The notes under the pieces are model-generated. The model was not told the origin of the DNA and ran no database searches. It saw nothing but the letters and a program-made list of their open reading frames with translations. This document shows, in pieces, positions 23,278-63,525 of a DNA stretch of 64,000 nt. The first letter of the stretch is position 1. The number at the start of each line of letters is the position of its first letter. This stretch comes from an uncultured Gammaproteobacteria bacterium (lineage in GTDB: Bacteria > Patescibacteriota > Microgenomatia > UBA8517), in contig CAYSAY010000001.1 of assembly GCA_964429215.1 (NCBI GenBank), positions 182,127 through 246,126 of the forward strand, in the 5' to 3' direction. The translations under genes were made by a program, and so were the position numbers.

Positions 23278-24396
23278 ATGCAAAAAATAGTAATTGTAAT
23301 GCCAGCTTGGAATGAAGGCGAGAATATTTCAAAAATGGTAAAAGTTCTTTTAGAGGAAGAGTTTCCAAAAATTGGGGCTGATATGAGTCTTTTGGTTGTA
23401 GATAATAATTCTAAGGACAATACGTTAGAAGTTGTAAAAGATGCTTCAAAGAAATTCAAAAATGTACATATTGTTCAACAGACTGGTAAAGGTCTTGGAT
23501 CTGCATATATAACTGGGTTTAAGTATGCAATGAAAGAACTTAATGCTGATGCTGTCATGGAAATGGATGCAGATTTTCAGCATCCACCTCGGTTTGTAAA
23601 GCCAATGGTTGATGCGTACATAAATGGTGCTGATTATTGTATTGGAAGTAGATATATTAAAGGTGGATCTGTTCCAAAAGAGTGGGCACTCTTTCGAAAG
23701 GCTGTTAGTTTTTTTGGAAATTTGTTTATAAGAATAGTTTTAATTAAACCTTCACTTCATGATTTAACGACAGGATTTCGGCTTACAAGAATAAAAGGAG
23801 TATTAGATCAGATAAATCTTGATAATTTAATGGAACCAGAAAGATTCGCCTATAAAGTTGATTTATTGTATCAATCAATTAAATTGTCTAAAAAAACTGT
23901 AGAGGTACCTTTAGAGTTTGCGTCACGTACTAAAGAAGTTTCTAAATTTAACCCAAAAGAAATGATCTCAACTTTTAAGGTGGCAATTATTTTGGGAATT
24001 AAAGACAAACAAAAAATAATTAAGTTTGGAATAGTTGGTGGAGCTGGATTTGTTGTTAATTTTATATTTTTAAGAGTATTTAGAAGTTTGGGATTTTCGG
24101 AGCTTTTAGTTTGGCTGTTTGCAACAGAGCTTGCAATTATTAATAACTATATTTTTAATAATATATGGACATTTAAAGATAGTGAAATAAAAGGATTAAA
24201 GGCAATTGTTTTAAAGTTTTTACAATTTAATTTAACTTCTGCAGGAGCACTTGTAATTCAATCTATAGCTGGCCCAATTGGAACAAGACTTTTAGGAGAG
24301 AAATATGATTTTATTGTGTTGGCTTTGGTTGTAGCGTTTCTTGTCCTTCCGTACAACTACTTGATGTACACAAAGGTGATTTGGAAGAAGAAATAG
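23278..24396 (+). CDS. Polyprenol-phosphate sugar synthase (DPM1/GtrB-like GT2) fused to a C-terminal GtrA-like domain
   Basis: IVIVMPAWNEGENI...LLVVDNNSKDNT GT2 core. C-terminal FGIVGGAGFVVNF...NNYIFNNIWTF matches the GtrA family. Confidence 0.7.
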   Translation: MQKIVIVMPAWNEGENISKMVKVLLEEEFPKIGADMSLLVVDNNSKDNTLEVVKDASKKFKNVHIVQQTGKGLGSAYITGFKYAMKELNADAVMEMDADFQHPPRFVKPMVDAYINGADYCIGSRYIKGGSVPKEWALFRKAVSFFGNLFIRIVLIKPSLHDLTTGFRLTRIKGVLDQINLDNLMEPERFAYKVDLLYQSIKLSKKTVEVPLEFASRTKEVSKFNPKEMISTFKVAIILGIKDKQKIIKFGIVGGAGFVVNFIFLRVFRSLGFSELLVWLFATELAIINNYIFNNIWTFKDSEIKGLKAIVLKFLQFNLTSAGALVIQSIAGPIGTRLLGEKYDFIVLALVVAFLVLPYNYLMYTKVIWKKK

Positions 24397-24397
24397 A

Positions 24398-24628
24398 TTA
24401 TATTTTTATGTCATCTAGAGATTCGTATTTGTCAGGATGCGCTTCATAAATCATTATTTTTAAACGGGTACCGAATAAGCCTTGTCTAGCCTTTTCTGCA
24501 CTTTGACTCTTTGCCTTGTCCATGCTTCCTGCTTTTAATACTGGGTTTTCAGCTTTTCCTAAATGTAGCCATTGGCTGCGGTTTCTCCAGATGCCGCTAA
24601 TTCCAGTTGTAATGATACGATCAGTCAT
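24398..24628 (-). CDS. Small hypothetical protein (76 aa)
   Basis: ORF only; no family recognised. Comparison with the L19, S16 and S21 ribosomal proteins found no match. Confidence 0.25.
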   Translation of the reverse strand: MTDRIITTGISGIWRNRSQWLHLGKAENPVLKAGSMDKAKSQSAEKARQGLFGTRLKIMIYEAHPDKYESLDDIKI

Positions 24629-24707: not shown

Positions 24708-25838
24708 TCAGAGGAATGGTTCCCAGTTTGCAATTGGCATTGCGTTTTGGGAGATGAAGGCAAGTGAATAAAGATAAATTGGGATAATAATTACAGCAAG
24801 CGCAATTTTAAATTCCTTCTTAACTAATGTATCTTTAAATCCTAGTAATAAAAATGGAACTAAAGGTAGAGAATATCTCATTAAATCTCGGTGTGCCACG
24901 AACAACAGTGGAATAAAAAAAGTTAAAGCGAAGTAGAAATAAAGTGATAGTTTTTCTTGGTAAAGTTTATATACACCAAGTACTCCAATCAAATATATAA
25001 ATATAACTTCTTCTAGCCAAAATGTACCAACCCAAGGTGCAGAGTAATTAAATATTTGAAATGGGGGGAAGAACAGATGCATATTGTCCCCAGATTTAAA
25101 ATATACCAAAAAATCACCATATGTAAGTTTGTAAAAGGTAAATACTAATAAAACTGCAAATGGAATTAATAATAAAGGCAAGTATTTTTTAAATTCAATC
25201 TTTAATAAGTTTTTAAGATTTGGTGTTAAGATTTGTAATATATACGCTCCAAATAAAAGGATTGCAGGCGATTTTGTCATTTGAGCTAAGGCACCCCAGA
25301 GACCTGCATATAAATATTTTTTCTTTCCGAAGTAATACGTTGATGCTAATATGGCTGCTATAAAGAAAGGTTCTGGAGAACCAACAGATCTTACTATTAG
25401 CCACCTTGCGGGGAATACTGCAAAAATTGTTGTAAGCCACAACGAATCGGTTTCGTTTAAATATAGTCTTGCGTGCTTGTTAAAAAATAATAATGCTAAA
25501 AATGAACTAGCGACAGTTACAAATAACATTGCATATGGGTGACCAAATACTGGAGCAAATGATTTTATTAACATAGGAAATAGAGGGAAATGTGCTGAAT
25601 AATATTCATTTGTTAAGGGGAATTGATAATTTTTCCCAATTAATTCTGGGTTATACATAGTTTTCCCGGCTACGATATAAAGAGGACCGTCAAAATTTGC
25701 TACAATTGTGGCCATACCTTGTAGAGGTAGTGGAATCGTCCAAAATTGATTCATTCTTGCAAAAAAAGGTGTCCATATAAGTAAAGTGGGAATAAGGGTT
25801 AGAAGCAAAATAGGTAAAAGACTTTTTAGTGTTCTCAT
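24708..25838 (-). CDS. Polytopic membrane protein (putative GT-C-type glycosyltransferase)
   Basis: About 10 TM helices and an aromatic-rich composition; no specific family assigned. Confidence 0.5.
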   Translation of the reverse strand: MRTLKSLLPILLLTLIPTLLIWTPFFARMNQFWTIPLPLQGMATIVANFDGPLYIVAGKTMYNPELIGKNYQFPLTNEYYSAHFPLFPMLIKSFAPVFGHPYAMLFVTVASSFLALLFFNKHARLYLNETDSLWLTTIFAVFPARWLIVRSVGSPEPFFIAAILASTYYFGKKKYLYAGLWGALAQMTKSPAILLFGAYILQILTPNLKNLLKIEFKKYLPLLLIPFAVLLVFTFYKLTYGDFLVYFKSGDNMHLFFPPFQIFNYSAPWVGTFWLEEVIFIYLIGVLGVYKLYQEKLSLYFYFALTFFIPLLFVAHRDLMRYSLPLVPFLLLGFKDTLVKKEFKIALAVIIIPIYLYSLAFISQNAMPIANWEPFL

Positions 25839-25886
25839 AGTATTGATAATACCATATTGAGGCTACAATATGTTAGACTTATTCGT

Positions 25887-26600
25887 ATGCAGTCAATCTC
25901 TGTTTTTTTCCCTACTTATAATGAAGAAGGAAGTATTAAAGATACTGTTTTGAAAGCCGTAAATGTATTGGAGAGACAATTTAAACAATGGGAAATACTA
26001 ATTGTAAACGATGGTTCAACAGATAACACGAAAGAAATTGCGGAACAATTGATAAAGAATAAGCAAAGCTTGCTCTTAGGAAGAGTTAGAGTAATTAATC
26101 ATATTCAGAATAAAGGTTACGGAGCAAGTCTTCAGTCAGGATTTTATAATGCTAAGTATGATTGGATAGCATTTACTGATTCAGATGGTCAATTCGATTT
26201 TTCAGAAGTTAATAAGTTTGTTGATAAGCAAACAGAAACAAATGCTGATTTAATAATTGGGTATTATAAAAAGAGACAAGTTTCTAAATTTAAAATATTA
26301 ACGTCTAAAATGTGGGAGCTTTCTGTAATGATTCTGTTTGGATTGCATGTTAGGGATATTGATTGTGGTTTTAAACTAATTTCTAAAAAGGTAATAGAAA
26401 AAATCTCTAAACTTGAAAGTGAAAGGGGTGCGTTTATTTCAAGTGAGCTTTTGATTAAGTCAAAAAAATCCGGGTTTAAAATTGTAGAGATTGCTGTAAC
26501 GCATTATCCTAGGACAGAAGGCAAAGGAACAGGTAGAAACTTAAAAGTAATTGTTAAGAGCTTTGTTGATCTTTTTAGGTTGTGGAGAAAACTGAAATGA
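25887..26600 (+). CDS. Polyprenol-phosphate sugar synthase (DPM1/GtrB-like GT2)
   Basis: SISVFFPTYNEEGSIKDT...ILIVNDGSTDNT...FTDSDGQ. Confidence 0.7.
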   Translation: MQSISVFFPTYNEEGSIKDTVLKAVNVLERQFKQWEILIVNDGSTDNTKEIAEQLIKNKQSLLLGRVRVINHIQNKGYGASLQSGFYNAKYDWIAFTDSDGQFDFSEVNKFVDKQTETNADLIIGYYKKRQVSKFKILTSKMWELSVMILFGLHVRDIDCGFKLISKKVIEKISKLESERGAFISSELLIKSKKSGFKIVEIAVTHYPRTEGKGTGRNLKVIVKSFVDLFRLWRKLK

Positions 26601-28078
26601 GAAAATGGATTATTAAAAATTGGGTTTTAGTATTAATTTTATTAGTTGGAGCTTTTATGAGGCTATATAAAATTAATGAATACATGACTTTTTTAGGAGA
26701 TGAAGGAAGAGATGCAATTATAGTTCGTAATTTATTAGTTCATGCAGACCCAATTTTAATAGGCCCAGGAACATCAGTTGGAAGTATGTATCTAGGTCCT
26801 CTTTATTATTACTTTATGGCTCCATTTTTGTTACTTTCTAATTTTTCACCGATCGGTCCTGCTTTAGGAGTCGCATTTCTAGGAATAGCTACAATTTATT
26901 TGGTTTATGTTACAGGACGAGATTGGTTTAATGAGAAAGCAGGATTAATTGCATCACTTTTATTTGCCATATCACCAACAGTAATTGTATATTCAAGATC
27001 TTCATGGAATCCTAATATAATGCCTTTTTTTGCATTACTTGCTGTTTATTCAATCTGGAGAGTTTGGTCAAAGAAACAATACAAATGGCTACTTGTTACT
27101 GCGATTTCTTTTGCATTTGTAATTCAATCTCATTATTTAGGAGTACTTTTGGCTCCAATATTATTTATATATTGGCTTCTTTCGCGTACTCCTATACGCT
27201 ATACGATATTGTCTATTCTCTTGTTTTCTTTTCTAATGAGTCCAATTTTAGCTTTTGATATCAGACATGATTGGTTAAATTCAAAAGCTCTTTATAAATT
27301 TGTTACTGTCAGAGAAGAAACTGTTTCTATTAAGCCTTGGACTGCAATTCCAAAGACTTATCCAATCTATGAGCAAATTAATAATAGTTTATTGGTGGCA
27401 AAAAATGTAAATGTAGGTAGAGTGGTTTCATTTTTAATACTGATGTTGATTTTGTGGATAGTTGTTAAAAATAAAAAATCTGTAATTCAAAACAAAAACT
27501 TATTTATTTTGTTAGCGTGGTACATATCGGGTTTGATTGGTTTTGGCTTATATAAGCAAAATGTCTATGATCATTACTTTGGATTTTTATTTGCTGTGCC
27601 GTTTTTACTAGTAGGAGTTATTTTGTCTGAAAGACTATTAACTGGTAGAAAAACTTTAAATGTTATTGTTGCCGGAATAATAATTTATTTAGTTTTTATT
27701 AACATAAAAGCAAGTCCATTAAAACAGACTCCAAATAATCAGATGAGAAGGGCAGAAAATGTAGCAAATGAAATAATTAAAAGGTCAAATAATGAAAAGT
27801 TTAACTTGGCAGTTATTGCTGATAGGAATTATGAGGATGGGTATCAATATTTTTTGGAAAAAGAAAATGCAAAAATTGTTGAAATTGATGCTCAGATAAC
27901 TGAATCAGTAACAAATCAATTATTTGTTGTCTGTGAAAATGAAAAAACAAAGTGTAACCCAACAAATTCTCCTAAAGCAGAAGTTGCCAATTTTGGTTGG
28001 AGTAAGATTGAAGCAGAATGGGAACAAGATGGTGTTATAATCTATAAATTAATACATAATAAACCTGAAACAAAATGA
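26597..28078 (+). CDS. ArnT/PMT-like GT-C membrane glycosyltransferase
   Basis: TM1 followed by the loop motif FLGDEGRDAII...GPLYYY; multi-pass N-terminal domain plus a C-terminal soluble domain. ATGA overlap with the upstream GT2. Confidence 0.65.
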   Translation: MRKWIIKNWVLVLILLVGAFMRLYKINEYMTFLGDEGRDAIIVRNLLVHADPILIGPGTSVGSMYLGPLYYYFMAPFLLLSNFSPIGPALGVAFLGIATIYLVYVTGRDWFNEKAGLIASLLFAISPTVIVYSRSSWNPNIMPFFALLAVYSIWRVWSKKQYKWLLVTAISFAFVIQSHYLGVLLAPILFIYWLLSRTPIRYTILSILLFSFLMSPILAFDIRHDWLNSKALYKFVTVREETVSIKPWTAIPKTYPIYEQINNSLLVAKNVNVGRVVSFLILMLILWIVVKNKKSVIQNKNLFILLAWYISGLIGFGLYKQNVYDHYFGFLFAVPFLLVGVILSERLLTGRKTLNVIVAGIIIYLVFINIKASPLKQTPNNQMRRAENVANEIIKRSNNEKFNLAVIADRNYEDGYQYFLEKENAKIVEIDAQITESVTNQLFVVCENEKTKCNPTNSPKAEVANFGWSKIEAEWEQDGVIIYKLIHNKPETK

Positions 28079-29067
28079 ATTACCCTGAATCGCAATTAAT
28101 TTTAGAGGAAATTAAAAAGGCAAATAAGATTTTACTTAATTGCCATAGATCTCCTGACCCTGATAGTGTGGGTAGTGCGCTTTCAATTTATCATTTACTT
28201 CAGTTGCTTGGCAAAGAAAATATAAAAATTATTTGTCCTGATGAAATTCCGTATAATTGTAAATTTTTAGATTACTCTGAAAAAATTGAAAAAGTGAATT
28301 TTAACGAATTTGATTTTTCTCAATATGATTTATTTATAATTGCTGATTCTGGTAATTGGGATCAAGTTACGGGTAAAGACAATATTATAAATTCAAATAC
28401 TAAAAAGATAGTAATTGATCATCACTTTACTAATCCAAAATTTGGAGATATTAATATTTTAGATACAAATGCAGGTTCTACTGCTGAAGTTGTGGCTAAA
28501 TTTATAGAAGATATCAATTTAAAAATTGACAAAGTTTTGGCTACATCATTATTAACAGGCGTTATTGCAGATACATTATCATTTCAGACTGATGTAATTG
28601 GCGAATCGTCATTAACTATAGCCGATAGATTAATTAAAGTAGGTGCAGACAGAAACAATATCATTTTTAATTTAAATAAATCAAAATCTTTAGACGAAAT
28701 TCATTTGATAGGATATTTGCTGTCACATGTTAATGTCGAATTGGAATATAAATTCGCATGGTCTTCTGTTTCAAAAGATATATCCAGAGAGTATCCAATG
28801 AGTAAAGAAGCTAAATCTACAGTTGCAGGGTCATTTATACCTGCAATTCAGGATACAGATTTTGGTTTCGTACTTGAGGAAAGTGAGAAATATATTTCAG
28901 TGAGTTTTAGATCTAGAAATAATTTTGACGTTTCAAAAATAGCTGTGGAACTTGGCGGAGGAGGGCATAAGTCGGCTGCTGCTGCAAGAATTCCAAACTC
29001 AACTTATGAAGAGGCTGTAGAGAAAGTTTTAACAGCATGTAGAAAATATGCTAACAAAAATATTTAA
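28075..29067 (+). CDS. nrnA: DHH/DHHA1 phosphoesterase (NrnA-like oligoribonuclease / pAp phosphatase)
   Basis: HRSPDPDSVGSA, DHH and GGGGH(K) motifs. Confidence 0.75.
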   Translation: MNYPESQLILEEIKKANKILLNCHRSPDPDSVGSALSIYHLLQLLGKENIKIICPDEIPYNCKFLDYSEKIEKVNFNEFDFSQYDLFIIADSGNWDQVTGKDNIINSNTKKIVIDHHFTNPKFGDINILDTNAGSTAEVVAKFIEDINLKIDKVLATSLLTGVIADTLSFQTDVIGESSLTIADRLIKVGADRNNIIFNLNKSKSLDEIHLIGYLLSHVNVELEYKFAWSSVSKDISREYPMSKEAKSTVAGSFIPAIQDTDFGFVLEESEKYISVSFRSRNNFDVSKIAVELGGGGHKSAAAARIPNSTYEEAVEKVLTACRKYANKNI

Positions 29068-30420
29068 ATCGTTTTACACTCCTTGGAACTTGTTGATTTT
29101 AATAATTTTACTTTTTGCATTTATACTTAGAATTTATAGAATTGAATCACTTTTAGATTTTCATTACGACCAAGGAAGGGACGCCAAAATTATTTGGGAT
29201 TTATGGCATTCACAGAAATTATTTTTGATAGGTCCAACAACAGGACTTGAAGGAATATTTTTGGGTCCATTTTATTATTATTTAATTGCTCCGTTTTATT
29301 TAATTGGTGGAGGTAATCCTACTATTCCTTCAATGTTTTTATCATTACTCTATACCATAGCTTTATATATACTTTATTTGACAGGATTCAAAATTCAGGG
29401 TCGGTTTACAGGTTTTGTTGCACTTGTTGTAGGAGCTTTTTCAAACAACTTGGTTTTTTCAAGTAGGTGGCTATCAAACCCTACTCCAATTTTTTTAACT
29501 TCAATTATAATTTTCTATTTAATGGTATTAATTATTAAAAAGGAAAAGCCTATTTACTGGATTTTGGTTTATTTGGCAGTTGGTGTTTCATTACAACTTG
29601 AATTGGCAAGCGCAGTATTTTATCTACCAATATTGGCTATTTTTACGATTTGGCAGTTACGAAAAATTAATATCAAAATTTTTTTATTAGCTTGTGTGAT
29701 ATTTTTTGTAACTTTAATTCCTCAAATATTATTTAATTTTAAGCATCAGAATATATTACTTAATAATATTATTAATGAAGTCAAAAATGGAAAATCAGTT
29801 CAGATTAACTATGTTGATAGGATTGGAAATCTATGGAAAATAACAAAAGAGATATTTTAATACTTATATCATTATTTTTAGGTGTACCATTTGTTGGATT
29901 TACTTTATATTCTGGCAATAATGGTAATTTGTATGGTTACTATTTGACAGGATATTTTTTAATAATTATTTTGGCATTTTCATACTTAGCTTCGTATATA
30001 TGGAAATTTAAAATAGGAAAGATTTTAGTTATATTATTTTTATTTTTGTTTTTAAAAAATAATTTAGCAAAAACAATAAATAAATTAAATGTTGATGTAT
30101 TAGAATCTAAAGAGATCGTTTTGCAAAATCAGTTGATAGCAATTAATTGGATAAGAGAGGATGCTGGATTGGATAAATATAATATAGATATCTATGTTCC
30201 ACCTGTAATTCCGCATTCGTACAATTATTTGTTATTGTGGAATAATATAGTTCAAGAAGAAAAGGAAACAACTATTTTATACACTTTATATGAAGATGAT
30301 CCGCCTCATCCTGAAAGATTGAATGCATGGTTGGAACGTCAGAAAAAAATTGGTAAAATTCTTTATGAAGAAAGGTTTGGAGGTATAGTGGTGCAAAGAA
30401 GAGAGAGGATTAAAAAATGA
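29048..30420 (+). pseudogene. GT-C membrane glycosyltransferase paralog split into two frames (29048-29860 and 29833-30420): frameshift or sequencing error
   Basis: The N-terminal piece has HYDQGRDAKII...GPFYYYL, homologous to neighbouring GT-C genes. The second ORF continues the membrane domain in another frame. Combined length matches the intact paralogs. Confidence 0.45.
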
Positions 30421-31892: not shown

Positions 31893-31906
31893 AAAAACAA
31901 AATAAT

Positions 31907-35772: not shown

Positions 35773-35783
35773 AATATTTATTC

Positions 35784-54284: not shown

Positions 54285-54858
54285 CAAATCGAAATTAATA
54301 GTCTTTACAACAATTACAATTTTATTTTTGTTGTTTGTATTACCTGTCCTTATGATACTTCCTATCAGGATGGTTCCTAGTGGTGACCAGCCTGGGTATG
54401 GTGATATAGGAAGAGTATCTGTCTATGGTTTAAGGCAATTTACTCAAACGTTCAAGTCAACTGATATTAATTTAATGGCAATTGGGACTACTATTAAAAA
54501 TCCGAATTTAAAAAATAAAAAGGTTGTTAATTTTAATTTGTATGATGAAAAGAATAATTTAATTAGAGAAGTTAAACTAAATGGATTTAACATTGGAGAC
54601 GGTGATTTTGTAAAAATTGTATTTGATGTTATTCCTGATTCTAAAAACAAGAATTATAGCTTTACAATTTCATCTCCAGAAGCAAACGAAGAAGAAATAT
54701 TAGAATTATTCTTGATAGGTCCAACAGAGTCTATTTTTACCTATGCATATAACGATGAAGTTAAAGAGGGTGGAATACCTATGGTTACCTTTCATAAGCC
54801 TGAAAGTTTAGGAAAAAATATAGTTAAAATATACTCTAATATATTCTCCAAACTATAA
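54277..54858 (+). CDS. Hypothetical membrane-anchored protein
   Basis: N-terminal TM segment; no family recognised. Confidence 0.4.
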   Translation: MINKSKLIVFTTITILFLLFVLPVLMILPIRMVPSGDQPGYGDIGRVSVYGLRQFTQTFKSTDINLMAIGTTIKNPNLKNKKVVNFNLYDEKNNLIREVKLNGFNIGDGDFVKIVFDVIPDSKNKNYSFTISSPEANEEEILELFLIGPTESIFTYAYNDEVKEGGIPMVTFHKPESLGKNIVKIYSNIFSKL

Positions 54859-56707
54859 CCTCTGAGTTTTCGAATAATTTAATAAGACCAAGTGATTTAA
54901 TATCAATTTTTGGTGCGACTTCCTTAGGATAATACAAAATGTTTGAATTGGTTGATGATATGGCTGATTTAACAACGTCAGCTTTATCACTGTTAAATAT
55001 AGTTTTTTTGATTTCTAAACGAGGTCTATATTCGTATCCCATGATGTCTACTTGTTCGTAATCGTCAAAATATGTTCTTCTTGATGTTAACGCTGAAACA
55101 TATGACGTATCAAACCAGTCCCAGATATGAGGAATTGGTTTTTTTAGGTTTAAATATTCATTGTATGGAGGAGTTAAGATAACATCGTCTACATTAGTAT
55201 TATTTTTTATAAAATTAAGTGCTTCAAGTTCAGCAGCAGTAATTTTTGTGAAAGGTTGCCTTATATGGTTATCTGAGATGTAGAATTCGCGAAAGAGCTT
55301 TACTTGTGTTGGAATCATCAAAGAAAACAAGAATATCGTATATAGTATGTAGTATATTGGTTTCTTGACTCTGGCAAATATTTGAGCAGTACTAATACCG
55401 GCTAATATGCCAAATAACAAAATAAAGTATTGTAAAAATTGTGCAGTGTTACTTGCTACACCTTTTTGCAAAAAGAGTAATGGTAAAACAATTGATAGAA
55501 TAATTGAGACCTTAAATATTGCATTAGTTTTCACTAATTCCCATAAACCTAGAAATCTCATTCCTAAATTTCCAAAGAAGAAAATTAAAAAGCCCATTCC
55601 TTCAAGCCAGATTACGCGTTTCCAGTTGTGTTCATATATATATGTTTGGCGTCTTAATTCCCAATCCAAAAGGTTAAGTCTTGAAGGTTCTACTATCATT
55701 GTCCTTATATACCACCAAGGTTCGTAAATCAAAAATGATCCAGTGTTTGAAGAGTTAGGAATGTATAGGGCAAGTGCCACGATTCCACTTAAAAGAGAAA
55801 GTAAAAATAGTCTTCTGTCTTTGTTAAAAATTAATTTCCATGTACCAATAATTGATAATGTGCCAAGCAGGATTACTCCTGCATATATTTTAAAGGCTGA
55901 TATTGTTCCTAGTAAAATAAGTGAAATTAAAAAGTACTTTTTTTGTAATCTTTTCTCTTTTTGATCGAGAAAAACTACGCAATAGTAAATGCTCGCTAAA
56001 AATAAAAAATTAGAGATTATTTGGGGAGGATTACCACTAGAACTTTGAATTTGAGTAGCCCAGAAGACGCTTTCTCCCTTTCCAATCAAATATCCAAAAC
56101 TACCTGCAAAATATGTAAATATGGTTGCCCATATTGAAGCTGAAAAGTTATTTGTTAGTTTTTTTGTCAAATAATAAACAGAAGCTCCAAGAAATAATGA
56201 ATAAATTAATGGGAATATTTTAAAATATAAATTTTCATTTGAAATGCCTGTGTATTTACTAACTATGGTTGGTAATATATCTGAAAAAAAATGATAATTT
56301 TTAAGCGGTGTTCCGGCAAAAATTGGATTTTGGAACGGATAACCTTTCTTAATTTCCTCCATTAATGCCATGTGCCAAGTACCATCATGACCATGGGCGC
56401 TCCAGAAGACTAAATCTCCTGAATTATTGTATGTGCCACTTGGTGAAATGATTGCAATTTGACTAATAATTCCAATAGTGAATATTAAAATAACAATTAT
56501 TGTTTGTATGTTTAATTTGATTTTTATACTTTTAAATCTTTTAACTAAAGAGCGAAAATTGAATACAATCGTTAAAAATAAAACTGGTATGATTAAGTAG
56601 GGAATATTTAGTACAATAAAGATATATGAAACCAGAGTTGCAAGGGAAAATGCAAAAATCGAACCCATTAACAAGCTTTCCATTTGCAAATTATATACTA
56701 ATTGCAA
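54836..56707 (-). CDS. Polytopic membrane protein, paralog family B (inverted copy of the 38744 gene)
   Basis: VFWSAHGHDGTWHMAL...PIFAGTPLKNYHFF aligns with the 38744 product. The 5' end is uncertain because the ORF overlaps the divergent gene at 56650. Confidence 0.5.
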   Translation of the reverse strand: MQLVYNLQMESLLMGSIFAFSLATLVSYIFIVLNIPYLIIPVLFLTIVFNFRSLVKRFKSIKIKLNIQTIIVILIFTIGIISQIAIISPSGTYNNSGDLVFWSAHGHDGTWHMALMEEIKKGYPFQNPIFAGTPLKNYHFFSDILPTIVSKYTGISNENLYFKIFPLIYSLFLGASVYYLTKKLTNNFSASIWATIFTYFAGSFGYLIGKGESVFWATQIQSSSGNPPQIISNFLFLASIYYCVVFLDQKEKRLQKKYFLISLILLGTISAFKIYAGVILLGTLSIIGTWKLIFNKDRRLFLLSLLSGIVALALYIPNSSNTGSFLIYEPWWYIRTMIVEPSRLNLLDWELRRQTYIYEHNWKRVIWLEGMGFLIFFFGNLGMRFLGLWELVKTNAIFKVSIILSIVLPLLFLQKGVASNTAQFLQYFILLFGILAGISTAQIFARVKKPIYYILYTIFLFSLMIPTQVKLFREFYISDNHIRQPFTKITAAELEALNFIKNNTNVDDVILTPPYNEYLNLKKPIPHIWDWFDTSYVSALTSRRTYFDDYEQVDIMGYEYRPRLEIKKTIFNSDKADVVKSAISSTNSNILYYPKEVAPKIDIKSLGLIKLFENSEVIVWRIY

Positions 56708-58104
56708 TATTAATATTAGGCTTCATTTTAAGAGTGTATAAGATTAACTCACTTCCTATATACGGTGATGAACTTACAATTGTTTACGATAGTTATAGCT
56801 TACTAAAAACTGGCCGTGATCAAACAGGTGAATTTTTGCCAATTACATTTAAAATGGGAGCAGGTAGGCCTGCTGGATACGTTTACGGAAGTATACCGTT
56901 TGTTGCTTTATTTGGTCCTACAGCACTCGGAGTACGTGGATTGTCTCTGCTTTCTGGTCTTGGAATTATAGTAATAATGTATTTTCTGGGAAAGAAAATC
57001 TTTGGCCCGCCTGCCGGCGAGGCGGGTGAAAAAATTGGGCTTATTGCAAGCTTTTTAACAGCTATTTCATCTTGGGATATTTATTTATCCAGAGCAGGTT
57101 TTGAAGCACATTTTGCACTATTATTAACGCTTGCTGGAGTACTTTTGTTTTTACATAGAAGGTATATGGTAATGGCTATTCTTTTTGGACTAGCCGCTTT
57201 TACATATCCCACATTTAAATTAACAATACCATTATTGGGTGTTATTTTACTTTTGTATTCAGGGTTTAAGAGTGTTGTTTATCAGAAATCATTTTTAATT
57301 TCTCTTGTTGTTCTTGTATTATTTGCTGGATTTAATTTACGTGAAACTATTAAAGGTGTTTCGGAAGAAAGATTTATGAGGTTAAACATTCTCGCTGACT
57401 CGAATGTAAAAGAAGAAGTCATCCAAAATATCAATGAGCAGAGAAAACTATCAAGCCTTCCTGAATCGATTAAACCATATATTTACAATAAACCGTTTAG
57501 ATATACTAGGATTTTATTTGAGAATTATATTGAAAATTTGTCACCTCAATTTTTATATTTAAGAGGTGATAGAAATCCAAGGCATAATCCTGGCGAGTGG
57601 GGAATGATGTATTTAATAGATATTCCATTACTGTTTACAGGTCTGTATTATTTGGCCAAATTAGAAAAAAAGAATTTAGTTTTTCTTGTTTTGTGGATTT
57701 TGATTGTTCCTCTTGCTACTATGCTTCTCGGTCAAACGCATGCTTTGAGAAATAATTTAATGTTGCCTCCTCTAATTTTAATTTCTGCTTTTGCTTTAGC
57801 AAATTTACCCAAATTGTTTTCTACAATAGCTCTTTTAATTATGGGAACACAGTTAATTTTTGTATTAATGGCTGTTTATTTTTATGCCCCACATAAATTT
57901 GGTTCATTTTGGTCAATTGACGCAAAAAATGCATCGTTAACGGCTATTGGACAAGACAAAAGTAAACAAGTGGTTCTTTCTACAAAAATTGGGGATATCG
58001 AATATGCTTATCCAGTTTACGCCAAAATTGATCCAAGACTTGTAATTTCTCAATATCAAAAATGGCCAAAAGTTTATGGCAATGTAATTATTACAAATGA
58101 ATAA
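56650..58104 (+). CDS. ArnT/PMT-like GT-C membrane glycosyltransferase (tandem copy 1 of 4)
   Basis: LRVYKINSLPIYGDELTIVYDSYSLLKTGRDQTGEF; DE loop motif. Start at the ATG at 56650 by alignment with its paralogs. Confidence 0.6.
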   Translation: MQKSNPLTSFPFANYILIAILILGFILRVYKINSLPIYGDELTIVYDSYSLLKTGRDQTGEFLPITFKMGAGRPAGYVYGSIPFVALFGPTALGVRGLSLLSGLGIIVIMYFLGKKIFGPPAGEAGEKIGLIASFLTAISSWDIYLSRAGFEAHFALLLTLAGVLLFLHRRYMVMAILFGLAAFTYPTFKLTIPLLGVILLLYSGFKSVVYQKSFLISLVVLVLFAGFNLRETIKGVSEERFMRLNILADSNVKEEVIQNINEQRKLSSLPESIKPYIYNKPFRYTRILFENYIENLSPQFLYLRGDRNPRHNPGEWGMMYLIDIPLLFTGLYYLAKLEKKNLVFLVLWILIVPLATMLLGQTHALRNNLMLPPLILISAFALANLPKLFSTIALLIMGTQLIFVLMAVYFYAPHKFGSFWSIDAKNASLTAIGQDKSKQVVLSTKIGDIEYAYPVYAKIDPRLVISQYQKWPKVYGNVIITNE

Positions 58105-59740
58105 ACTATCTAAAATTGTTTTATTTTTAATTATAGTCTTAGCCTTTGTTTTGAGGGTTTATAATATAACTTCAATTCCACCATCTTTAAACTGGGATGA
58201 GACCTCAATTGGTTATAATGCCTATTCAATTTTAAAGACTGGTAGAGATGAATGGGGTGAGTTTATGCCAGTTCACTTTAAATCGTTTGGTGAGTATAAA
58301 CTCCCCGCACAAATTTATGCCTCAATCCCTGCTATTGCAATTTTTGGTCTAAATGAATTTGGTGTGCGTATTACTCCAGTAATATATGGGACATTATCTG
58401 TGTTACTTTTGTACCTGTTGGTACAGGAACTCTACAAAAAACGAGAGATTTCATTACTATCTGCATTTCTCCTTGCAGTTTCTCCGTGGCACATACAATT
58501 AACGAGAGGATCGTTTGAATCATCATTTTCTCTGTTTTGGTTTTTAATGGGACTTTTACTTTTAGTTAAAGGGTTCAAGAATACCAAGTGGTTAATCGTT
58601 TCAATGCTTCCATTTGTAATTTCAGTCTATACGTATAATACCGCTAGAGTATTTACACCATTATTTTTATTTGTAGTGTATTTAATTAAATATAAATATT
58701 TAATTAAAAATTTTAAATATGCGCTTTTTAGTTTCTTAGTATTTGTGTTTTTGGCAATTCCAATTGTTCCATTTGTTATTTCAGGGGATGCAGCGGCAAG
58801 ATATAAGTTAGTTAGTATTACTGATGATGCTGGATTAATTCCAAGAATTGAAGAGAGAAGAAATCTATCTAAGTCACCAAAAGTGGTGACAAAATTAATT
58901 CACAATAGATATACCTACAATACTGTTTATTTCAGCCAGAATTATATAGCCCATTTTACACCTGACTTTTTGTTTTTTAGTGGAGCAGGGCACAGACAAC
59001 ATCATGTGCAAGGAGTTGGAGAACTGTATTGGATTCAGGCTCCCTTTTTATTGGTTGGATTATATTTTCTGTTAAAAAGAAAGGATATAAGTTTAAAAAT
59101 ATTACTACCGTGGTTATTCTTAGCATTTGTTCCTGTGTCAATGACAAACGATAGTATTCCAAATGCGTTACGTACTCTTATCGCAGTTCCTGTTTATCAA
59201 ATTTTTTCAGCAATTGGTTTTTTTGAAGTCTGGCAAATGGCAAAAAGCAAAAAGCAGAAGACTGTTTTGACACTGGTAGCAATTGCATTATTTGTAATTA
59301 ACATTTTTATGTTTGCAACTAATCTCTATACCCTATACCCTATACGCTATTCTAAAGACTGGCAGTACGGTAATAAGCAAGCAGTGGAGTATATTCAAAA
59401 AAATCAAGACAATTATGACTTAATAGTATTTACGAGAAGTTATGGTGAACCTCATATTTTTACATTATTTAATTTAAAATATGATCCTGCAAAATTTCAG
59501 CAGAGTTCTAATTTAGAAAGATTTGAAACATTTAATTGGGTAAGAGTATTAAGATTTGATAAATATAACTTCCCAGATTTAGGTGATCTTGGAACAAAGT
59601 ATGAAGATATTATTAAAGTAAATCCAGGGAAAAGAATATTATTTATAGGAAAGCCTAATGATTTTCCTGAAAGAGTAAAAATATTAGAAAGGATAAACTT
59701 CTTAGATGGCTCAGAAGCTTTTGAGATTACTACGAACTAA
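58097..59740 (+). CDS. ArnT/PMT-like GT-C membrane glycosyltransferase (copy 2)
   Basis: LRVYNITSIPPSLNWDETSIGYNAYSILKTGRDEWGEFMP. Confidence 0.6.
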   Translation: MNKLSKIVLFLIIVLAFVLRVYNITSIPPSLNWDETSIGYNAYSILKTGRDEWGEFMPVHFKSFGEYKLPAQIYASIPAIAIFGLNEFGVRITPVIYGTLSVLLLYLLVQELYKKREISLLSAFLLAVSPWHIQLTRGSFESSFSLFWFLMGLLLLVKGFKNTKWLIVSMLPFVISVYTYNTARVFTPLFLFVVYLIKYKYLIKNFKYALFSFLVFVFLAIPIVPFVISGDAAARYKLVSITDDAGLIPRIEERRNLSKSPKVVTKLIHNRYTYNTVYFSQNYIAHFTPDFLFFSGAGHRQHHVQGVGELYWIQAPFLLVGLYFLLKRKDISLKILLPWLFLAFVPVSMTNDSIPNALRTLIAVPVYQIFSAIGFFEVWQMAKSKKQKTVLTLVAIALFVINIFMFATNLYTLYPIRYSKDWQYGNKQAVEYIQKNQDNYDLIVFTRSYGEPHIFTLFNLKYDPAKFQQSSNLERFETFNWVRVLRFDKYNFPDLGDLGTKYEDIIKVNPGKRILFIGKPNDFPERVKILERINFLDGSEAFEITTN

Positions 59741-61070
59741 TATTTTTTTGGTTTTAATCTGTTTACTGTTTTTAGTAACTAGATTGTACAAAATTAGTGA
59801 GATTCCTGGCTCTGTTTACTGGGATGAGGCTTCAATTGGTTATAATGCATATTCAGTTTTAACTACAGGTAGAGATGAGTGGGGTGAGTTTATGCCACTA
59901 CATTTTAGGGCGTTTGGCGAATTTAAGTTACCGGTTTATATTTACTCAGTTGCTATTTCAGAGAGTTTGTTTGGCATGAATGTTTTTGCTGTTAGGTTTC
60001 CAGCTGTGATATTTGGTTTGTTGTCAATTGTTGGGTTGTACTTAGTAATAAATAAAATCACTAAGTTAAAGATAGTTGCGCTCTTGAGTTCATTTTTATT
60101 TTCAGTTACGCCTTGGTTTTTTATATTTTCTAGAACTGGTTATGAAGCAGTTAGTGGTCTTGCCTTTTTTATATGGGCGATTTATTTTTTAATTAAGTCG
60201 ATTGAAGAGAAAAATTACTTAGTACTATCTACAATTTTATTTGTTGGGTCTACTTATAGCTACAACAGTTTTCGTATATTAACACCTGTGGTTTTAGGAC
60301 TAGGGCTTTTGTATTTTCTTGTCAGAAAGCACTATGGAGTTGTATTTATGTCAGCATTAATTCTTCTTGCTAGTATGTTTCCTCTTTATAAATTATTTAA
60401 ACAGGATTCAGGTCTATCAAGACTTCAATCAGTGAAATCAACAAGTAATATTGTAAGTAATTACATTAAAAATTATTCTCCTTATTATTTATTTATTGAA
60501 GGGGATACAAATCCAAGAAGCCAAGTACCTTACAAATCACAGTTATATTTTACTGATTCAATCTTCTTGATATTGGGAGTTTTATATATTTTGAAAAGCA
60601 AAAATCCGAAATTGTATTTAGTGTTATGTCTTTTGTTAATTGCCCCAATTCCAGCTGCGATAACAAAGGAAAATCCTCATGCACTGCGAAGTATTTTGAT
60701 GAGTCCTATATTTAGTGTAATATCTGCGCTTGGAATTTATTATCTTTCAAAATCTAGTAAATTATTAATTGTAATTGTAGTTGGTGCTTATTTAATAAGT
60801 TTTGGAAATTATTATTATAAATTTAATACTGAATATAATGATCTGTCAAAATCTGCTTGGCAGTTTGAATACAAAGATATTTTTGAAAAACAGAAAGAAG
60901 GATGCGTGAGTGATGAATTTGCACAGCCATATATATTTGCTCTTTATTACCAAAAAGTAAATCCAAGTGATTTTATTGCCACCCGTGAACTAAATCCTGT
61001 TTCTGACTGGGGCTTTTCAACAGTAAAATCATTTGGTAAATATACATTTCCCAAAATATGCAAAAACTAA
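59706..61070 (+). CDS. ArnT/PMT-like GT-C membrane glycosyltransferase (copy 3)
   Basis: YWDEASIGYNAYSVLTTGRDEWGEFMPLHF. Confidence 0.6.
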   Translation: MAQKLLRLLRTNIFLVLICLLFLVTRLYKISEIPGSVYWDEASIGYNAYSVLTTGRDEWGEFMPLHFRAFGEFKLPVYIYSVAISESLFGMNVFAVRFPAVIFGLLSIVGLYLVINKITKLKIVALLSSFLFSVTPWFFIFSRTGYEAVSGLAFFIWAIYFLIKSIEEKNYLVLSTILFVGSTYSYNSFRILTPVVLGLGLLYFLVRKHYGVVFMSALILLASMFPLYKLFKQDSGLSRLQSVKSTSNIVSNYIKNYSPYYLFIEGDTNPRSQVPYKSQLYFTDSIFLILGVLYILKSKNPKLYLVLCLLLIAPIPAAITKENPHALRSILMSPIFSVISALGIYYLSKSSKLLIVIVVGAYLISFGNYYYKFNTEYNDLSKSAWQFEYKDIFEKQKEGCVSDEFAQPYIFALYYQKVNPSDFIATRELNPVSDWGFSTVKSFGKYTFPKICKN

Positions 61071-62629
61071 CTTACTTTTTTTTGGCATTAATTGTTGCAT
61101 TAGCAGTTTTTTTAAGATTCTGGAAGCTTGATACAATCCCAGCATCTCTTAATTGGGATGAGATTGCAGCAGGATATAATGCATACACCATAGCAAATTG
61201 GGGCGCAGATGAATATGGAAATAAATTTCCCCTTGTTTTTAAATCTTTTGCTGATGACAAACATCCAGTTCATATTTATTTAACTTCAATAGTTGTTAAG
61301 ATATTTGGCCTTTCTGATTTTAATATTCGTGCAACTAGTGCCGGTATAGGGGTGTTGACTGTATTTTTTGTATTTTTTCTTGCAAGAAAACTGTTTGATA
61401 GTAATTTAGTAGGATTATTTGCAGCATTATTTTTGGCGGTTTCGCCTTATCATATTCATTTTTCGAGAGGTCTTTGGGAGAATAACTTTGCATTATTTTT
61501 TCTGGTTGCTGGTCTTTCCTTGATTTACATAGGTTTAAGAAAGTTAAATTACTTTATTCCAGTAGCATTTTTATTTTTTGGACTTTCGTTTTATTCCTAT
61601 CATTCAGCGAAAATCGTTGTTCCATTGGTAGCGTTACTTGCCTGCATTATTAACATTAAAGAGCTGGTTCGAAACAAAACAGTTTTAATTTCTTCAGTTT
61701 TAGTTGTTTTATTTTTTGGACTGCTTTTGATTAAAGATACTAGGATTTTGGGATTTGCGAGGATGAATCAAACAAAGTTTTCAGAGGAACAAATAAAAAC
61801 TGCAGGTGGGAAATATAAATTGATATTTAATAATTATATGAAACATTTTACATATTCTTATCTTTTTGATAAAGGAGATCAAGGTCCTAGAGCATCTGTT
61901 AAAGTTGTTGGTGAATTTTACAAGATTGATCTTGTATTAGCATTTGTTGGATTTTTGTTTCTTGTTTACAGAAAAAAATGGCAAGCATTATCAATCATTT
62001 CATTATGGTTATTATTATCACCAATTCCTAGTTCTGTGTCCTCGGTAGAGCCAAGTGCTATAAGAGGAATATTTATGGTAGTTCCTGTGTTATTACTATC
62101 AGCATATGGTGCAGGAGCTTTAGTATTTTTATTCAAAAATAAATTCCTAAGAGTTGGAATTATTTTGATCGTACTAGGAATTTTAAGTCGTGAAGTAATT
62201 AATTATTTGAATTATTATACAAAAGTGTATCCAATCAAAGAGGCGATTGAGTGGCAATATGGTATGAAACAAATTGTAACCTATGCGGAAAGTAACCCAG
62301 ATATGTATAAGATGTATGTGGATAATATAAGGCAACAGCCCTATATATACTTTTTGTATTATTTGAAAGTTCCACTACCGGAATTACTTGCTAGTGTAAA
62401 ATATGATGAAAGTAATTCGAAAAGTTTTAATACAGTTCTTTCTTTTGATAGATATCAATTTGGTAACTGGAATATTATAGAAAGTTATCCAAATGAAGGA
62501 ATTGTATATGCAGTTACACCAAGTTATTACACAGGTTTAAGATATATACAACAGTTTGACGTTATCAAGTTAATTAAGTATCCTGATAGAAGTGATGCAT
62601 TTTATATAGTAGGAGGACATCAACAATGA
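61058..62629 (+). CDS. ArnT/PMT-like GT-C membrane glycosyltransferase (copy 4)
   Basis: NWDEIAAGYNAYTIANWGADEYGNKFPLVF. Confidence 0.6.
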   Translation: MQKLTYFFLALIVALAVFLRFWKLDTIPASLNWDEIAAGYNAYTIANWGADEYGNKFPLVFKSFADDKHPVHIYLTSIVVKIFGLSDFNIRATSAGIGVLTVFFVFFLARKLFDSNLVGLFAALFLAVSPYHIHFSRGLWENNFALFFLVAGLSLIYIGLRKLNYFIPVAFLFFGLSFYSYHSAKIVVPLVALLACIINIKELVRNKTVLISSVLVVLFFGLLLIKDTRILGFARMNQTKFSEEQIKTAGGKYKLIFNNYMKHFTYSYLFDKGDQGPRASVKVVGEFYKIDLVLAFVGFLFLVYRKKWQALSIISLWLLLSPIPSSVSSVEPSAIRGIFMVVPVLLLSAYGAGALVFLFKNKFLRVGIILIVLGILSREVINYLNYYTKVYPIKEAIEWQYGMKQIVTYAESNPDMYKMYVDNIRQQPYIYFLYYLKVPLPELLASVKYDESNSKSFNTVLSFDRYQFGNWNIIESYPNEGIVYAVTPSYYTGLRYIQQFDVIKLIKYPDRSDAFYIVGGHQQ

Positions 62630-63525
62630 AAAAAGAATTAAAATTATCACAAAGTGACAAGCTACGCTTATCTGTAGTTCAAGCAACAAGAAATGAAGCT
62701 GAAAATATCGAAAGGAACTTGAAATCTGTAAAAGATATCGCCTTTGAAATGATTGTTGTTGATGAGTATTCAACAGATAATACTAAACAACTTGCTGAAA
62801 AAAATGGTGCAAAAGTTTATCTAGAAAAACATCATGATATTTTTCATATTACAAAGCAGAAGGCTATAGATTATGCGACAGGCGATTGGATTTTACAGAT
62901 TGATTCAGATGAAGCTGTTACACCAGAACTAGCTAAAGAAATTAAAAAAGTATTAAATGGAGAAGAAATTGTAATTAATGATCCAAAAAAGAAAAAACTT
63001 TTTGATAAACATCAAGAATTGCTTGCAGAAAGAGATGGAAAATTAGGTAAAGACGAAGGAGAAGTTGTTGCTTATAACGAAATTGTAGCCTATTTTATAC
63101 CTCGAGTAAATATGTTTTTGGGTAGACCATTAATTCATGGAGGGGTTTATCCGGATGGGGTTATAAGACTGTTTAAGAAGGGCAAAGCATGGTTACCGGG
63201 AAAATCAGTTCATGAGCAAATGGAAATAGATGGAAAAGTTGGGTGGCTTAACAATAATCTTCTTCACTATGATTCACCAACACTTTCTAGATATTTTTGG
63301 AGGCTTAACAGATATACAGATGCTCATGCGCTTGAGTTGAAAGTTAATAAAGTTTCTAAGGGGTTAGGTGGTTTTGTTCAATATGTTTTTGTAAAACCTA
63401 TATTTACTTTTTTTAATTTGTTTTTAAGACATAAAGGTTTTAAGGATGGAGTAAATGGATTTTTATGGAGTTTTTTCTCTGCCCTTCATTTTCCCATAGC
63501 TTATTTTAAATATATAACTTCTTGA
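62626..63525 (+). CDS. Glycosyltransferase family 2 (paralog of 40392 and 41296)
   Basis: LSVVQATRNEAENIERNLKSV...EMIVVDEYSTDNT...IDSDE. Confidence 0.65.
   Translation: MKKELKLSQSDKLRLSVVQATRNEAENIERNLKSVKDIAFEMIVVDEYSTDNTKQLAEKNGAKVYLEKHHDIFHITKQKAIDYATGDWILQIDSDEAVTPELAKEIKKVLNGEEIVINDPKKKKLFDKHQELLAERDGKLGKDEGEVVAYNEIVAYFIPRVNMFLGRPLIHGGVYPDGVIRLFKKGKAWLPGKSVHEQMEIDGKVGWLNNNLLHYDSPTLSRYFWRLNRYTDAHALELKVNKVSKGLGGFVQYVFVKPIFTFFNLFLRHKGFKDGVNGFLWSFFSALHFPIAYFKYITS

Follow-up and report, generated by a model that had tools for sequence, protein, structure and literature searches.

The stretch of DNA analysed here, referred to as the window, comprises 64,000 nucleotides of a genome deposited as an uncultured Gammaproteobacteria bacterium (GTDB lineage Patescibacteriota; Microgenomatia) and lies inside a 195.7-kb metagenome contig (ENA ERZ27247837 k141_2432886, positions 113055-177054). 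Its larger part, from 23260 to 63525, is a locus of 33 genes dominated by membrane glycosyltransferases of the GT-C type, and we read this locus, with a probability of roughly 0.6, as a two-face lipid-linked glycan assembly system that builds a complex surface glycan on both faces of the cytoplasmic membrane. Every open reading frame (ORF) of at least 100 aa was translated, its transmembrane (TM) segments were estimated by hydropathy and the product was scanned against Pfam, while paralogs were grouped by all-against-all BLASTP of the window proteins. Among 65 such ORFs listed, 58 were read as genes and the remainder lie within or overlap these.

GT-C genes make up 18 of the 33 genes in 23260-63525 in comparison to 0 of the 25 genes in 1-23233, a clustering far above chance, and they occupy ~27.8 kb of the 40.3 kb (69% of locus DNA). 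Three long units of the locus consist of tightly packed, overlapping genes read in one direction. In addition to the GT-C genes, Pfam analysis of the locus identified a GT2-GtrA fusion (J), seven further GT2s, one GT4, a SAM (S-adenosylmethionine) methyltransferase, a short-chain dehydrogenase/reductase (SDR) and a Wzx flippase. An earlier sequence-only reading of this DNA, made from the letters and ORF translations without database searches, had named the Wzx, YfhO, methyltransferase, SDR, GT2 and GT4 genes, all of which Pfam confirmed, and its count of at least 17 polytopic membrane proteins is borne out by the 18 GT-C genes together with Wzx and the GT2-GtrA protein at the following positions:

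23260..24396, + strand: J, GT2 domain of polyprenyl-phosphate-sugar synthase type by likeness, joined to a membrane domain resembling the GtrA flippase (Glycos_transf_2 87.5 bits)
24708..25838, - strand: H, compact 376-aa GT-C resembling ALG12/Gpi18; no other locus enzyme is as conserved
25857..26600, + strand: K1, short soluble GT2, polyprenyl-phosphate-sugar synthase-like (Pfam GT2 111.8 bits)
26582..28078, + strand: A1, PMT_2-type GT-C (PMT_2 53.5 bits, PMT 35.8 bits)
29048..30420, + strand: A2, PMT_2-type GT-C, split gene (PMT_2 35.5 bits on the N-terminal part)
30417..31892, + strand: A3, PMT_2-type GT-C, paralog of A1 and A2 (PMT_2 36 bits)
31907..32644, + strand: K2, short soluble GT2, polyprenyl-phosphate-sugar synthase-like (Pfam GT2 103 bits; NCBIfam PgfS 93.6 bits)
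32662..34044, + strand: A4, diverged paralog of A1-A3 (no Pfam match; BLASTP to A1 E 2e-16 over 422 aa)
34925..35659, + strand: SDR, candidate sugar-modifying enzyme (adh_short 95 bits)
35784..37307, + strand: B, single-copy PMT_2-type GT-C with D40-E41 (PMT_2 32.9, PMT 28.3 bits)
37321..38781, + strand: Wzx/MOP-family lipid-linked oligosaccharide flippase (Polysacc_synt_3 183 bits)
38744..40417, + strand: F1, GT-C carrying an extracytoplasmic alpha/beta domain at its C-terminus (no model in Pfam or NCBIfam)
40392-41300, 41267-42016 and 41983-43017, + strand: cytoplasmic Leloir glycosyltransferases GT2, GT2 and GT4 (Pfam; no TM segments)
42971..45343, + strand: G, YfhO-family GT-C of 790 aa (PF09586 66.2 bits against a cut-off of 28.5, in two stretches)
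45321-45971, + strand: SAM methyltransferase (Methyltransf_11 85 bits)
45968-46876, + strand: GT2 (Pfam GT2 79 bits)
46908..51851, + strand: D1-D3, tandem PTPS_related (YfhO-related) GT-C with D36-D37 (PF10131 28.5 and 26.1 bits; the third by paralogy, E 1e-54)
51848..54284, + strand: E1-E2, tandem GT87 GT-C, PimE/MptA-B-like (PF09594 36.4 and 31.5 bits against a cut-off of 25)
54836..56707, - strand: F2, second F-family GT-C (30% identity to F1, with an N-terminal extension; BLASTP E 1.5e-74)
56626..62629, + strand: C1-C4, four tandem PMT_2-type GT-C with a WDE/GDE motif (PMT_2 41.8-53.8 bits in three copies; C1 by paralogy, E 3e-48)
62626..63525, + strand: terminal GT2 and last locus gene (Pfam GT2 61.9 bits), paralog of the GT2s at 40392 and 41267

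The 18 GT-C genes correspond to 19 ORFs, one gene being split, and BLASTP grouping assigned them to eight families: A (26582, 29048+29833, 30417, 32662), B (35784), C (56626, 58097, 59706, 61058), D (46908, 48574, 50175), E (51848, 52992), F (38744, 54836), G (YfhO, 42971) and H (24708). Likeness to established GT-C families was found by sequence or by structure. PMT_2/PMT Pfam matches occurred at 26582, 29048, 30417, 35784, 58097, 59706 and 61058, and the three genes without a Pfam match (32662, 50175 and 56626) are clearly paralogous to neighbours that have one (E 2e-16, 1e-54 and 3e-48 by BLASTP). Hydropathy gave 6-12 TM segments in all 18 candidates. As the sequence-only reading had proposed for most of them, an Asp in the first loop after TM1 is kept by every GT-C family across orthologs; acidic loop-1 residues present in at least 85% of orthologs are D40 in A, D40-E41 in B, D34 in C, D36-D37 in D, D27 in E, D51 in F and D45 in G, and D50 of H is invariant among orthologs. 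Profile-profile comparison placed A, B and C in one clan and linked D to YfhO (hhalign probability 99.6%), with F standing apart at no more than 53% to any other family. The locus membrane proteins are GT-C glycosyltransferases and not transporters, in line with the earlier reading.

PF02366 (cut-off 22.7 bits) matched 26582 (35.8), 35784 (28.3), 58097 (35.7), 59706 (23.1) and 61058 (26.1 bits), each below the protein's own PMT_2 score. D40 is conserved in 108 members of family A, while D34 and three other residues are the sole conservation among 67 members of family C. Family B keeps a conserved C-terminal extracytoplasmic domain and 66 invariant columns including D40 and E41, and a loop-1 DE motif is found in B and in the window's C-family copies. 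E1-E2 gave a weak precomputed MptA_B_family match. Searches of A, B, C and F with phmmer and profiles against PDB sequences found no glycosyltransferase, and no solved PMT or ArnT; by sequence the four families are unassignable to PMT or ArnT.

The split of A2 consists of ORFs 29048-29860 (270 aa) and 29833-30420 (195 aa), which overlap by 28 nt in different frames, and the 195-aa ORF aligns to residues ~308-495 of the ~490-aa single ORFs found in at least 11 species. A sequencing error was considered and rejected as the same split, with a 193-aa ORF, occurs in another species (L014; related loci are designated by L numbers), most species having the fused form. Possible readings of A2 are a GT-C made of two subunits, a frameshift common to both species or a gene in decay.

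Families F and H stand outside current classification. Family F matched nothing in Pfam, NCBIfam or the sequences of the PDB, and H returned no Pfam match and a single sub-threshold NCBIfam match. The homologs of H, among those listed, are mostly 65-87% identical. AlphaFold2 models of both are all-helical membrane bundles, and on this predicted fold F and H are GT-C glycosyltransferases. The longer F2-like architecture (~640-680 aa) is common among family F representatives.

Three findings tie F genetically to the flippase. Wzx matched the NCBIfam models for MOP flippase, TuaB and O-glycosylation Wzx, all below cut-offs; its ORF overlaps the start of F1 by 38 nt, and in related loci Wzx lies immediately upstream of F in 60 of 70 cases and no more than three genes away in 66 of 70. 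An exhaustive profile search of 1.84 billion representatives yielded 1607 members of family F, among them one single representative (P0280, 1639 aa) that is a Wzx-X-F fusion with an N-terminal Wzx (Polysacc_synt_3 186 bits), a middle domain X and a C-terminal F. Many other members (e.g. P0243, P0262, P0269) are X-F fusions of ~1000-1150 aa, and X is fused to or precedes F in further lineages (L050 7917-9980, L054 8252-10315, L064 896-3901). Domain X is a secreted domain of ~400-450 aa that has no Pfam model and matches the uncharacterised PDB entry 3lm3 weakly (E 6e-4); it is not encoded in the window. Wzx and the cytoplasmic glycosyltransferase block are genetically coupled to the GT-C enzyme F.

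F could be a new oligosaccharyltransferase or ligase that moves a flipped, externally elaborated oligosaccharide en bloc to surface proteins or to the wall, analogous to the ALG pathway plus its oligosaccharyltransferase. The near-obligate Wzx adjacency and the Wzx-X-F fusion speak for it, as does the lack of any Wzy-, WaaL- or PglL-type protein in the window to receive the flipped intermediate. A 37-sequence alignment of F holds conserved 'NGHDG' and 'LETMM' motifs, which seem to resemble, loosely, the EL1 and TIXE motifs of PglB. However, F gave no match to the STT3 Pfam family (PF02516), the PDB profile search found no oligosaccharyltransferase and F has no sequence likeness to solved ones. 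By inspection of the conserved columns of the alignment, no WWDxG-like motif (the WWDYG type of STT3) follows the last TM helix. The existence of the paralog F2 is a better fit to a glycosyltransferase than to a unique oligosaccharyltransferase, and the sequon density of Asn-rich surface proteins encoded upstream equals what their composition predicts. We therefore judge this role of F very unlikely. A more specific picture, in which the locus is the Microgenomates counterpart of the N-glycan pathway of the endoplasmic reticulum (ER), with an oligosaccharide begun on its lipid in the cytoplasm, flipped by Wzx, elaborated from polyprenyl-P-sugars by GT-C enzymes in a fixed series and moved en bloc by F, as a hitherto unrecognised family that is STT3-like though sequence-unrelated, to host-attachment surface proteins or the wall, seems to us distinctly unlikely. 

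Two-face assembly, the reading we prefer, also calls for lipid-linked sugar donors and a cytoplasmic start. J, K1 and K2 match only polyprenyl-phosphate glycosyl synthase models (ArnC, PgfS, AglJ, Dol-P-hexose transferase, PpgS), far below the equivalog cut-offs, whereas the GtrA domain of J scored 54.7 bits with PF04138 (GtrA_DPMS_TM) against a cut-off of 26.1. The three DPM1/GtrB-like synthases of the sequence-only reading correspond to the putative synthases at 23260, 25857 and 31907, one of them a GtrA fusion and all scoring below cut-off. J adjoins H in three other loci also (L011, L088, L089), K1 forms a distinct orthogroup at ~65% identity and K2 is found in most loci. The GT2-(GT2)-GT2-GT4 block that follows F in most loci is arranged as LMLN in 47 of 80 loci and as LLN in some others, and the methyltransferase and GT2 pair downstream of GT4 is conserved in most loci. 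The SDR is rare elsewhere and was found in two loci of other species (L023, L055).

Conservation of the locus was determined by scanning one genome per species for family F, which gave at least 227 species genomes with F-encoding stretches. The best 80 F loci, each F with 10 kb on either side, formed the comparison set and were annotated with hidden Markov models of the window's families; they come from Woese-, Ames-, Blackburn- and Shapirobacteria and other Microgenomates. Many public records of metagenome-assembled genomes that contain this locus carry the label 'uncultured Gammaproteobacteria bacterium' and are evidently mislabelled. A common gene order emerged, A-A-K-B-(D)-Wzx-F-GT2-GT2-GT2-GT4-(YfhO/A)-MT-GT2-GT2 (MT, methyltransferase), followed by C, D and E arrays. 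B is present in 44 and G in 28 of 53 full loci. The left flank is syntenic in two further species (L088, L089), with K1/H/J, trmD, GT2s, RmlC/RmlD-like genes and an MFS or CAP protein. From the at least 227 species genomes and the conserved order it follows that the locus is a class-wide feature and not a private expansion; the earlier suggestion of a hyper-expansion peculiar to this genome does not stand. Copy number, which that reading had proposed to compare across related genomes, does vary, from 4 to 10 GT-C genes per locus (median 8) in ~21.6 kb among the 53 full-length loci. Another family of polytopic membrane proteins (~443 aa), which by eye look like GT-C enzymes, occurs in 17 related loci (e.g. 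L073 12354-13670) and is absent from the window.

To determine paralog orthology, the homologs from all 80 loci were each assigned to the window paralog that they matched best. Window paralogs share 24-35% identity within families by BLASTP, the order D1-D2-D3 is kept in 14 loci, the order A1-A2-A3 recurs, and K1 and K2, like F1 and F2, fall into separate orthogroups. Loci L020, L034, L041 and L042 repeat the arrangement D D D E (E) Q F(-) C, in which Q is a 193-aa protein listed below. H, B, F, D and G are strongly conserved, whereas A and C retain little beyond the catalytic Asp; family C, at 26-31% identity and with no fixed order across species, is the most variable. Judged from these sequence comparisons most paralogs are ancient and position-keeping, and family C alone looks fluid, and such positional orthology is as expected if each paralog performs a distinct step. 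No phase-variation tracts turned up when the GT-C genes were searched for homopolymers and tandem repeats, and switchable combinatorial expression accordingly gained no support. The combinatorial glycosylation system proposed earlier is weakened by these results, and the pattern fits a fixed multi-step pathway with lineage-specific accessory modules, while a recent, combinatorially switched amplification fits less well.

With the synthase-like GT2s counted in, all parts of an extracytoplasmic, polyprenyl-phosphate-sugar-dependent glycosylation, which the earlier reading had recognised here, are present. We infer donor sugars, order of action and acceptor from the fold and family identities, gene order, conservation and Wzx-F coupling described above. 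Nucleotide sugars would be supplied as UDP-Glc by GalU and as a CDP-6-deoxyhexose by RfbF, RfbG and RmlC-like and RmlD-like enzymes, and the cytoplasmic GT2/GT4 enzymes (40392-43017, 45968, 62626 and the upstream GT2s) would build an oligosaccharide on a lipid carrier, with the methyltransferase and SDR modifying its sugars. Wzx (37321) would flip this lipid-linked oligosaccharide, and the Wzx-coupled F (38744) may be the first to act on the flipped intermediate, by elongation or transfer. In parallel, the synthase-like GT2s at 23260 (GtrA fusion), 25857 and 31907 would make lipid-phosphate-monosaccharide donors that are then flipped outward, where the other 16-17 GT-C enzymes (H, B, A1-4, D1-3, E1-2, YfhO, F2, C1-4) would each add one specific sugar or linkage at the outer face. 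The conserved core of H, B, D and F may produce the backbone and the variable C, E, YfhO and F2 a lineage-specific decoration. The product is most likely a wall-associated or lipid-anchored heteropolysaccharide, and surface proteins may be additional acceptors. A polymer or lipoglycan acceptor is favoured because of the GT87, YfhO, Wzx and glycosyltransferase-block content of the locus; relatives of GT87/MptA_B-like, YfhO and GT4 enzymes act on lipoglycans or wall polymers in characterised systems (family knowledge; PMC8035078, PMC11127046).

Several observations weigh against this two-face reading. In window ORFs of at least 100 aa there is no priming phosphoglycosyl transferase (PGT), Wzy, chain-length regulator, LCP or ABC exporter, nor are the same enzyme types recurrent within 10 kb of F in the 80 loci, and with no priming transferase, Wzy or LCP in the window the proposed pathway lacks both its beginning and its end. 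A single GtrA-type flippase domain would have to serve three synthases, the C-terminal TM helices that GtrB has are absent from K1 and K2, and all functional family matches fall below curated equivalog cut-offs. Furthermore, trmD and a DHH phosphoesterase gene are equally syntenic, and conserved order alone is no proof of a single pathway.

The same gene content bears on whether the locus is a standard O-antigen, capsule or teichoic-acid cluster of unusual appearance, as such clusters typically contain Wzx, GT2/GT4 enzymes, nucleotide-sugar genes and a YfhO homolog. Yet the Pfam scan of the window ORFs returned no Wzy_C, Bac_transf, Glycos_transf_4, Wzz, LytR_cpsA_psr, TagB/F or LtaS, that is, no PGT, Wzy, Wzz, LCP, TagB/F-type or LtaS-type gene, in agreement with the earlier view that no canonical layout is matched. 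GT-C genes, at most accessory in canonical clusters, take up more than two-thirds of the DNA, and the layout is conserved across a monoderm class of the Candidate Phyla Radiation (CPR). A standard cluster is, in our estimation, extremely unlikely.

Upstream of the locus lie genes for sugar supply and surface proteins. The supply genes, and the genes in and around the locus that are not listed above, are as follows:

9732..22593: upstream supply/accessory region, syntenic in L088 and L089
9732-10610: galU (NCBIfam GalU 311 bits, just under cut-off)
10610-11812: MFS protein (Pfam)
13861-17068: CDP-6-deoxyhexose genes (NCBIfam)
17606-18577 (- strand), 19874-20800 and 20800-22593: three upstream GT2s (Pfam)
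22595-23233, - strand: trmD, housekeeping, between the GT2/sugar-nucleotide genes and the GT-C locus
28075..29067, + strand: DHH/DHHA1 phosphoesterase (Pfam DHH and DHHA1), inside the GT-C operon
34075-34917: Bro-N (KilA-N-like DNA-binding) domain protein, between GT-C genes
54277..54858, + strand: Q, 193-aa single-pass membrane protein (no family match), travelling with the D-E-F2 module
63558-64000 (L086 10933-11472): PhdYeFM-antitoxin/ParE-toxin pair, directly after the last locus gene

NCBIfam placed CDP-glucose 4,6-dehydratase (451 bits), the RmlC-like (166 bits) and the RmlD-like protein (233 bits) above their cut-offs and glucose-1-P cytidylyltransferase (276 bits) just under it. These upstream genes constitute a CDP-6-deoxyhexose route, and the galU and CDP-6-deoxyhexose genes named in the sequence-only reading are thereby confirmed by Pfam and NCBIfam. 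Pfam also identified two sortases in the upstream region. Pro/Thr-rich linkers occur in the proteins at 3935-6136 and 1012-1503, the former having a ~70-residue Pro/Thr/Ala-rich linker at its start and a TM helix followed by RRRSHA, without LPXTG, at its end. ORF 63-503 ends in LAFTG, a hydrophobic stretch and a basic tail, a sortase-E-like arrangement and the sole recognisable sorting signal, and no LPXTG was found. Of the sortase-anchored repeat proteins claimed previously, the sortases and linkers hold, whereas anchoring reduces to this one LAFTG signal and the connection to the glycosyltransferases to position. Secreted Asn/Ser/Thr-rich proteins (63-503, 2595-8306) share an N-terminal 'SGNG-x-S/T' repeat module. 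N-x-S/T sequons reach 1.9-5.0 per 100 aa in the Asn-rich surface proteins in comparison to 0.7 for all window proteins; as evidence of N-glycosylation this density was rejected, being equal to the expectation from N/S/T composition. The link of the surface proteins to the GT-C locus is positional only, and housekeeping trmD is equally syntenic.

These surface proteins are the main acceptors in another possible account, in which the locus comprises several independent systems of GtrB-like synthase, flippase and GT-C that O-glycosylate the Ser/Thr/Pro-rich linkers of secreted and sortase-anchored proteins, as in the actinobacterial Pmt, streptococcal GtrB-PgtC2 and Pgf systems. PMT/PMT_2 matches on seven GT-C genes agree with it, but these are weak (PMT_2 33-54 bits), no solved PMT is detectable by sequence and PMT_2 also includes enzymes that modify lipids and polymers. 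For J and K2 the highest-scoring model is PgfS, at 75-94 bits against a cut-off of 500 and with ArnC and AglJ scoring similarly. The upstream Pro/Thr-rich linkers, two sortases and LAFTG signal, a large surface protein of the SpaA/SdrD type encoded at the corresponding place upstream in L089, and the lack of LCP or polymer-export genes in the window are also in its favour. However, a distance of 15-30 kb separates the surface-protein genes from the GT-C genes, and across the 80 loci no surface-protein gene is found repeatedly within 10 kb of F. Characterised systems have one or two GT-C enzymes, not 18, and the presence of Wzx, the cytoplasmic glycosyltransferase block, GT87 and YfhO suggests that an oligo- or polysaccharide is assembled. 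Protein O-glycosylation as the main function is in our view unlikely, though a serious competitor, and the earlier step from PMT-like enzymes to protein O-glycosylation is not established; lipid-linked assembly on two faces remains the reading we prefer.

The genes not of glycosylation type are the DHH/DHHA1 gene (28075) and the Bro-N gene (34075), with trmD (22595) just outside the start of the locus. The DHH/DHHA1 gene occupies an equivalent position in 16 other loci and in L088 (6662-7663) and L089 (5729-7755, duplicated), and is possibly a housekeeping NrnA held by synteny or a pathway phosphatase. Close homologs of the Bro-N gene occur at the equivalent position in five other species, and it may encode a regulator or be a domesticated mobile-element gene. 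Because trmD keeps its position in L088 and L089, conserved synteny by itself is no proof of shared function. The right edge of the locus is exact, at 63525; beyond it lie the PhdYeFM/ParE pair and genes unrelated to the locus.

Scans for promoters and terminators in 23000-62999 returned the same counts as shuffled sequence and are uninformative on operon structure, and tRNA and Rfam scans of the window gave no matches. A 23-bp tandem repeat of ~2.1 copies, each with TTGACA, was observed at 35727-35774, just upstream of the B gene, within a 124-bp gap that is the sole sizeable intergenic gap of the locus, and this region is a candidate promoter or operator. Window G+C is ~31%; the 12-14 kb bin stands at 0.39 and contains ORFs 11838-12650 and 12773-13609, neither with a family match. 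All 2-kb bins of the window show positive GC skew (0.05-0.30) and nearly all genes are on the + strand, a one-strand bias that recalls the strand-composition disparity of a complete Microgenomates genome (PMC7143001).

Members of the CPR (Patescibacteria) are ultra-small, and those cultivated, mostly Saccharibacteria, are attached to other cells; because cultivated members live in this way the surface is central to CPR biology. Complete genomes of the lineage measure 0.8-0.9 Mb, and a locus of ~40 kb devotes ~4-5% of such a genome to the assembly of one glycan. This investment and the class-wide synteny suggest an essential role of the product in envelope integrity or host recognition. We found no description of the locus, or of GT-C, ArnT, oligosaccharyltransferase or protein glycosylation systems in CPR, in the open-access literature, where the abundance of Microgenomates glycosyltransferases receives a passing mention only (PMC7143001). 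The kind of system is known; new are its scale, an architecture conserved in a reduced genome, two GT-C families outside current classification and the coupling of Wzx to F. The locus thereby provides a concrete parts list for a CPR surface glycan, including the unclassified, highly conserved H and F, and a natural GT-C set for studying the evolution of linkage specificity.

In comparison to known systems, the locus resembles the Gtr-type three-component systems, composed of a GtrB/CsbB-type synthase, a GtrA-type flippase and a GT-C enzyme (GtrC, YfhO, GT136) (PMC8035078; PMC11127046), in its synthase-like GT2s, its GtrA domain, its GT-C enzymes including a true YfhO member and a reaction outside the membrane. 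Known Gtr-type systems have one GT-C per synthase and modify a polymer made elsewhere, whereas the locus has 18 GT-C genes of eight families with three synthases and one GtrA, Wzx and cytoplasmic glycosyltransferases are interleaved, and no separate polymer-synthesis locus was identified in the window. Unlike those of Gtr-type systems, the GT-C enzymes here are probably responsible for the bulk of the glycan and not for its decoration. Monoderm protein O-glycosylation (actinobacterial Pmt; streptococcal GtrB-PgtC2 and PgfS-PgfM1/M2; PMC12041528, PMC5856776) shares with the locus PMT/PMT_2 GT-C enzymes, PgfS-like GT2s and the proximity of Ser/Thr/Pro-rich surface proteins and sortases, but manages with one or two GT-C enzymes, without Wzx or a block of cytoplasmic glycosyltransferases, and the PgfS likeness of the locus is far below cut-off.

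By logic the closest analogues are the assembly of mycobacterial lipomannan (LM), lipoarabinomannan (LAM) and arabinogalactan and the ER ALG pathway, more than any O-antigen or teichoic-acid locus. Likeness to the eukaryotic and archaeal lipid-linked oligosaccharide pathway (ALG glycosyltransferases, flippase, Dol-P-Man/Glc synthases, ALG3/9/12/6/8/10, STT3/AglB) is at fold level only (8-15% identity), and STT3 signature motifs were not found in the locus. The mycobacterial and corynebacterial phosphatidylinositol mannoside (PIM)-LM-LAM and arabinogalactan pathways (PimA/B GT4, Ppm1, PimE, MptA/B, Emb/Aft) are likewise two-faced, with a cytoplasmic GT4/GT2 start, a DPM1-like donor synthase and a long series of GT-C enzymes including GT87/MptA_B-type members, one linkage per paralog. 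Orthology to them is at family level only, the locus being without Emb/Aft and a UbiA-type DPPR synthase, and while the mycobacterial genes are dispersed in a 4.4-Mb genome, those described here stand in one 40-kb stretch, in a lineage whose complete relatives have genomes of 0.8-0.9 Mb.

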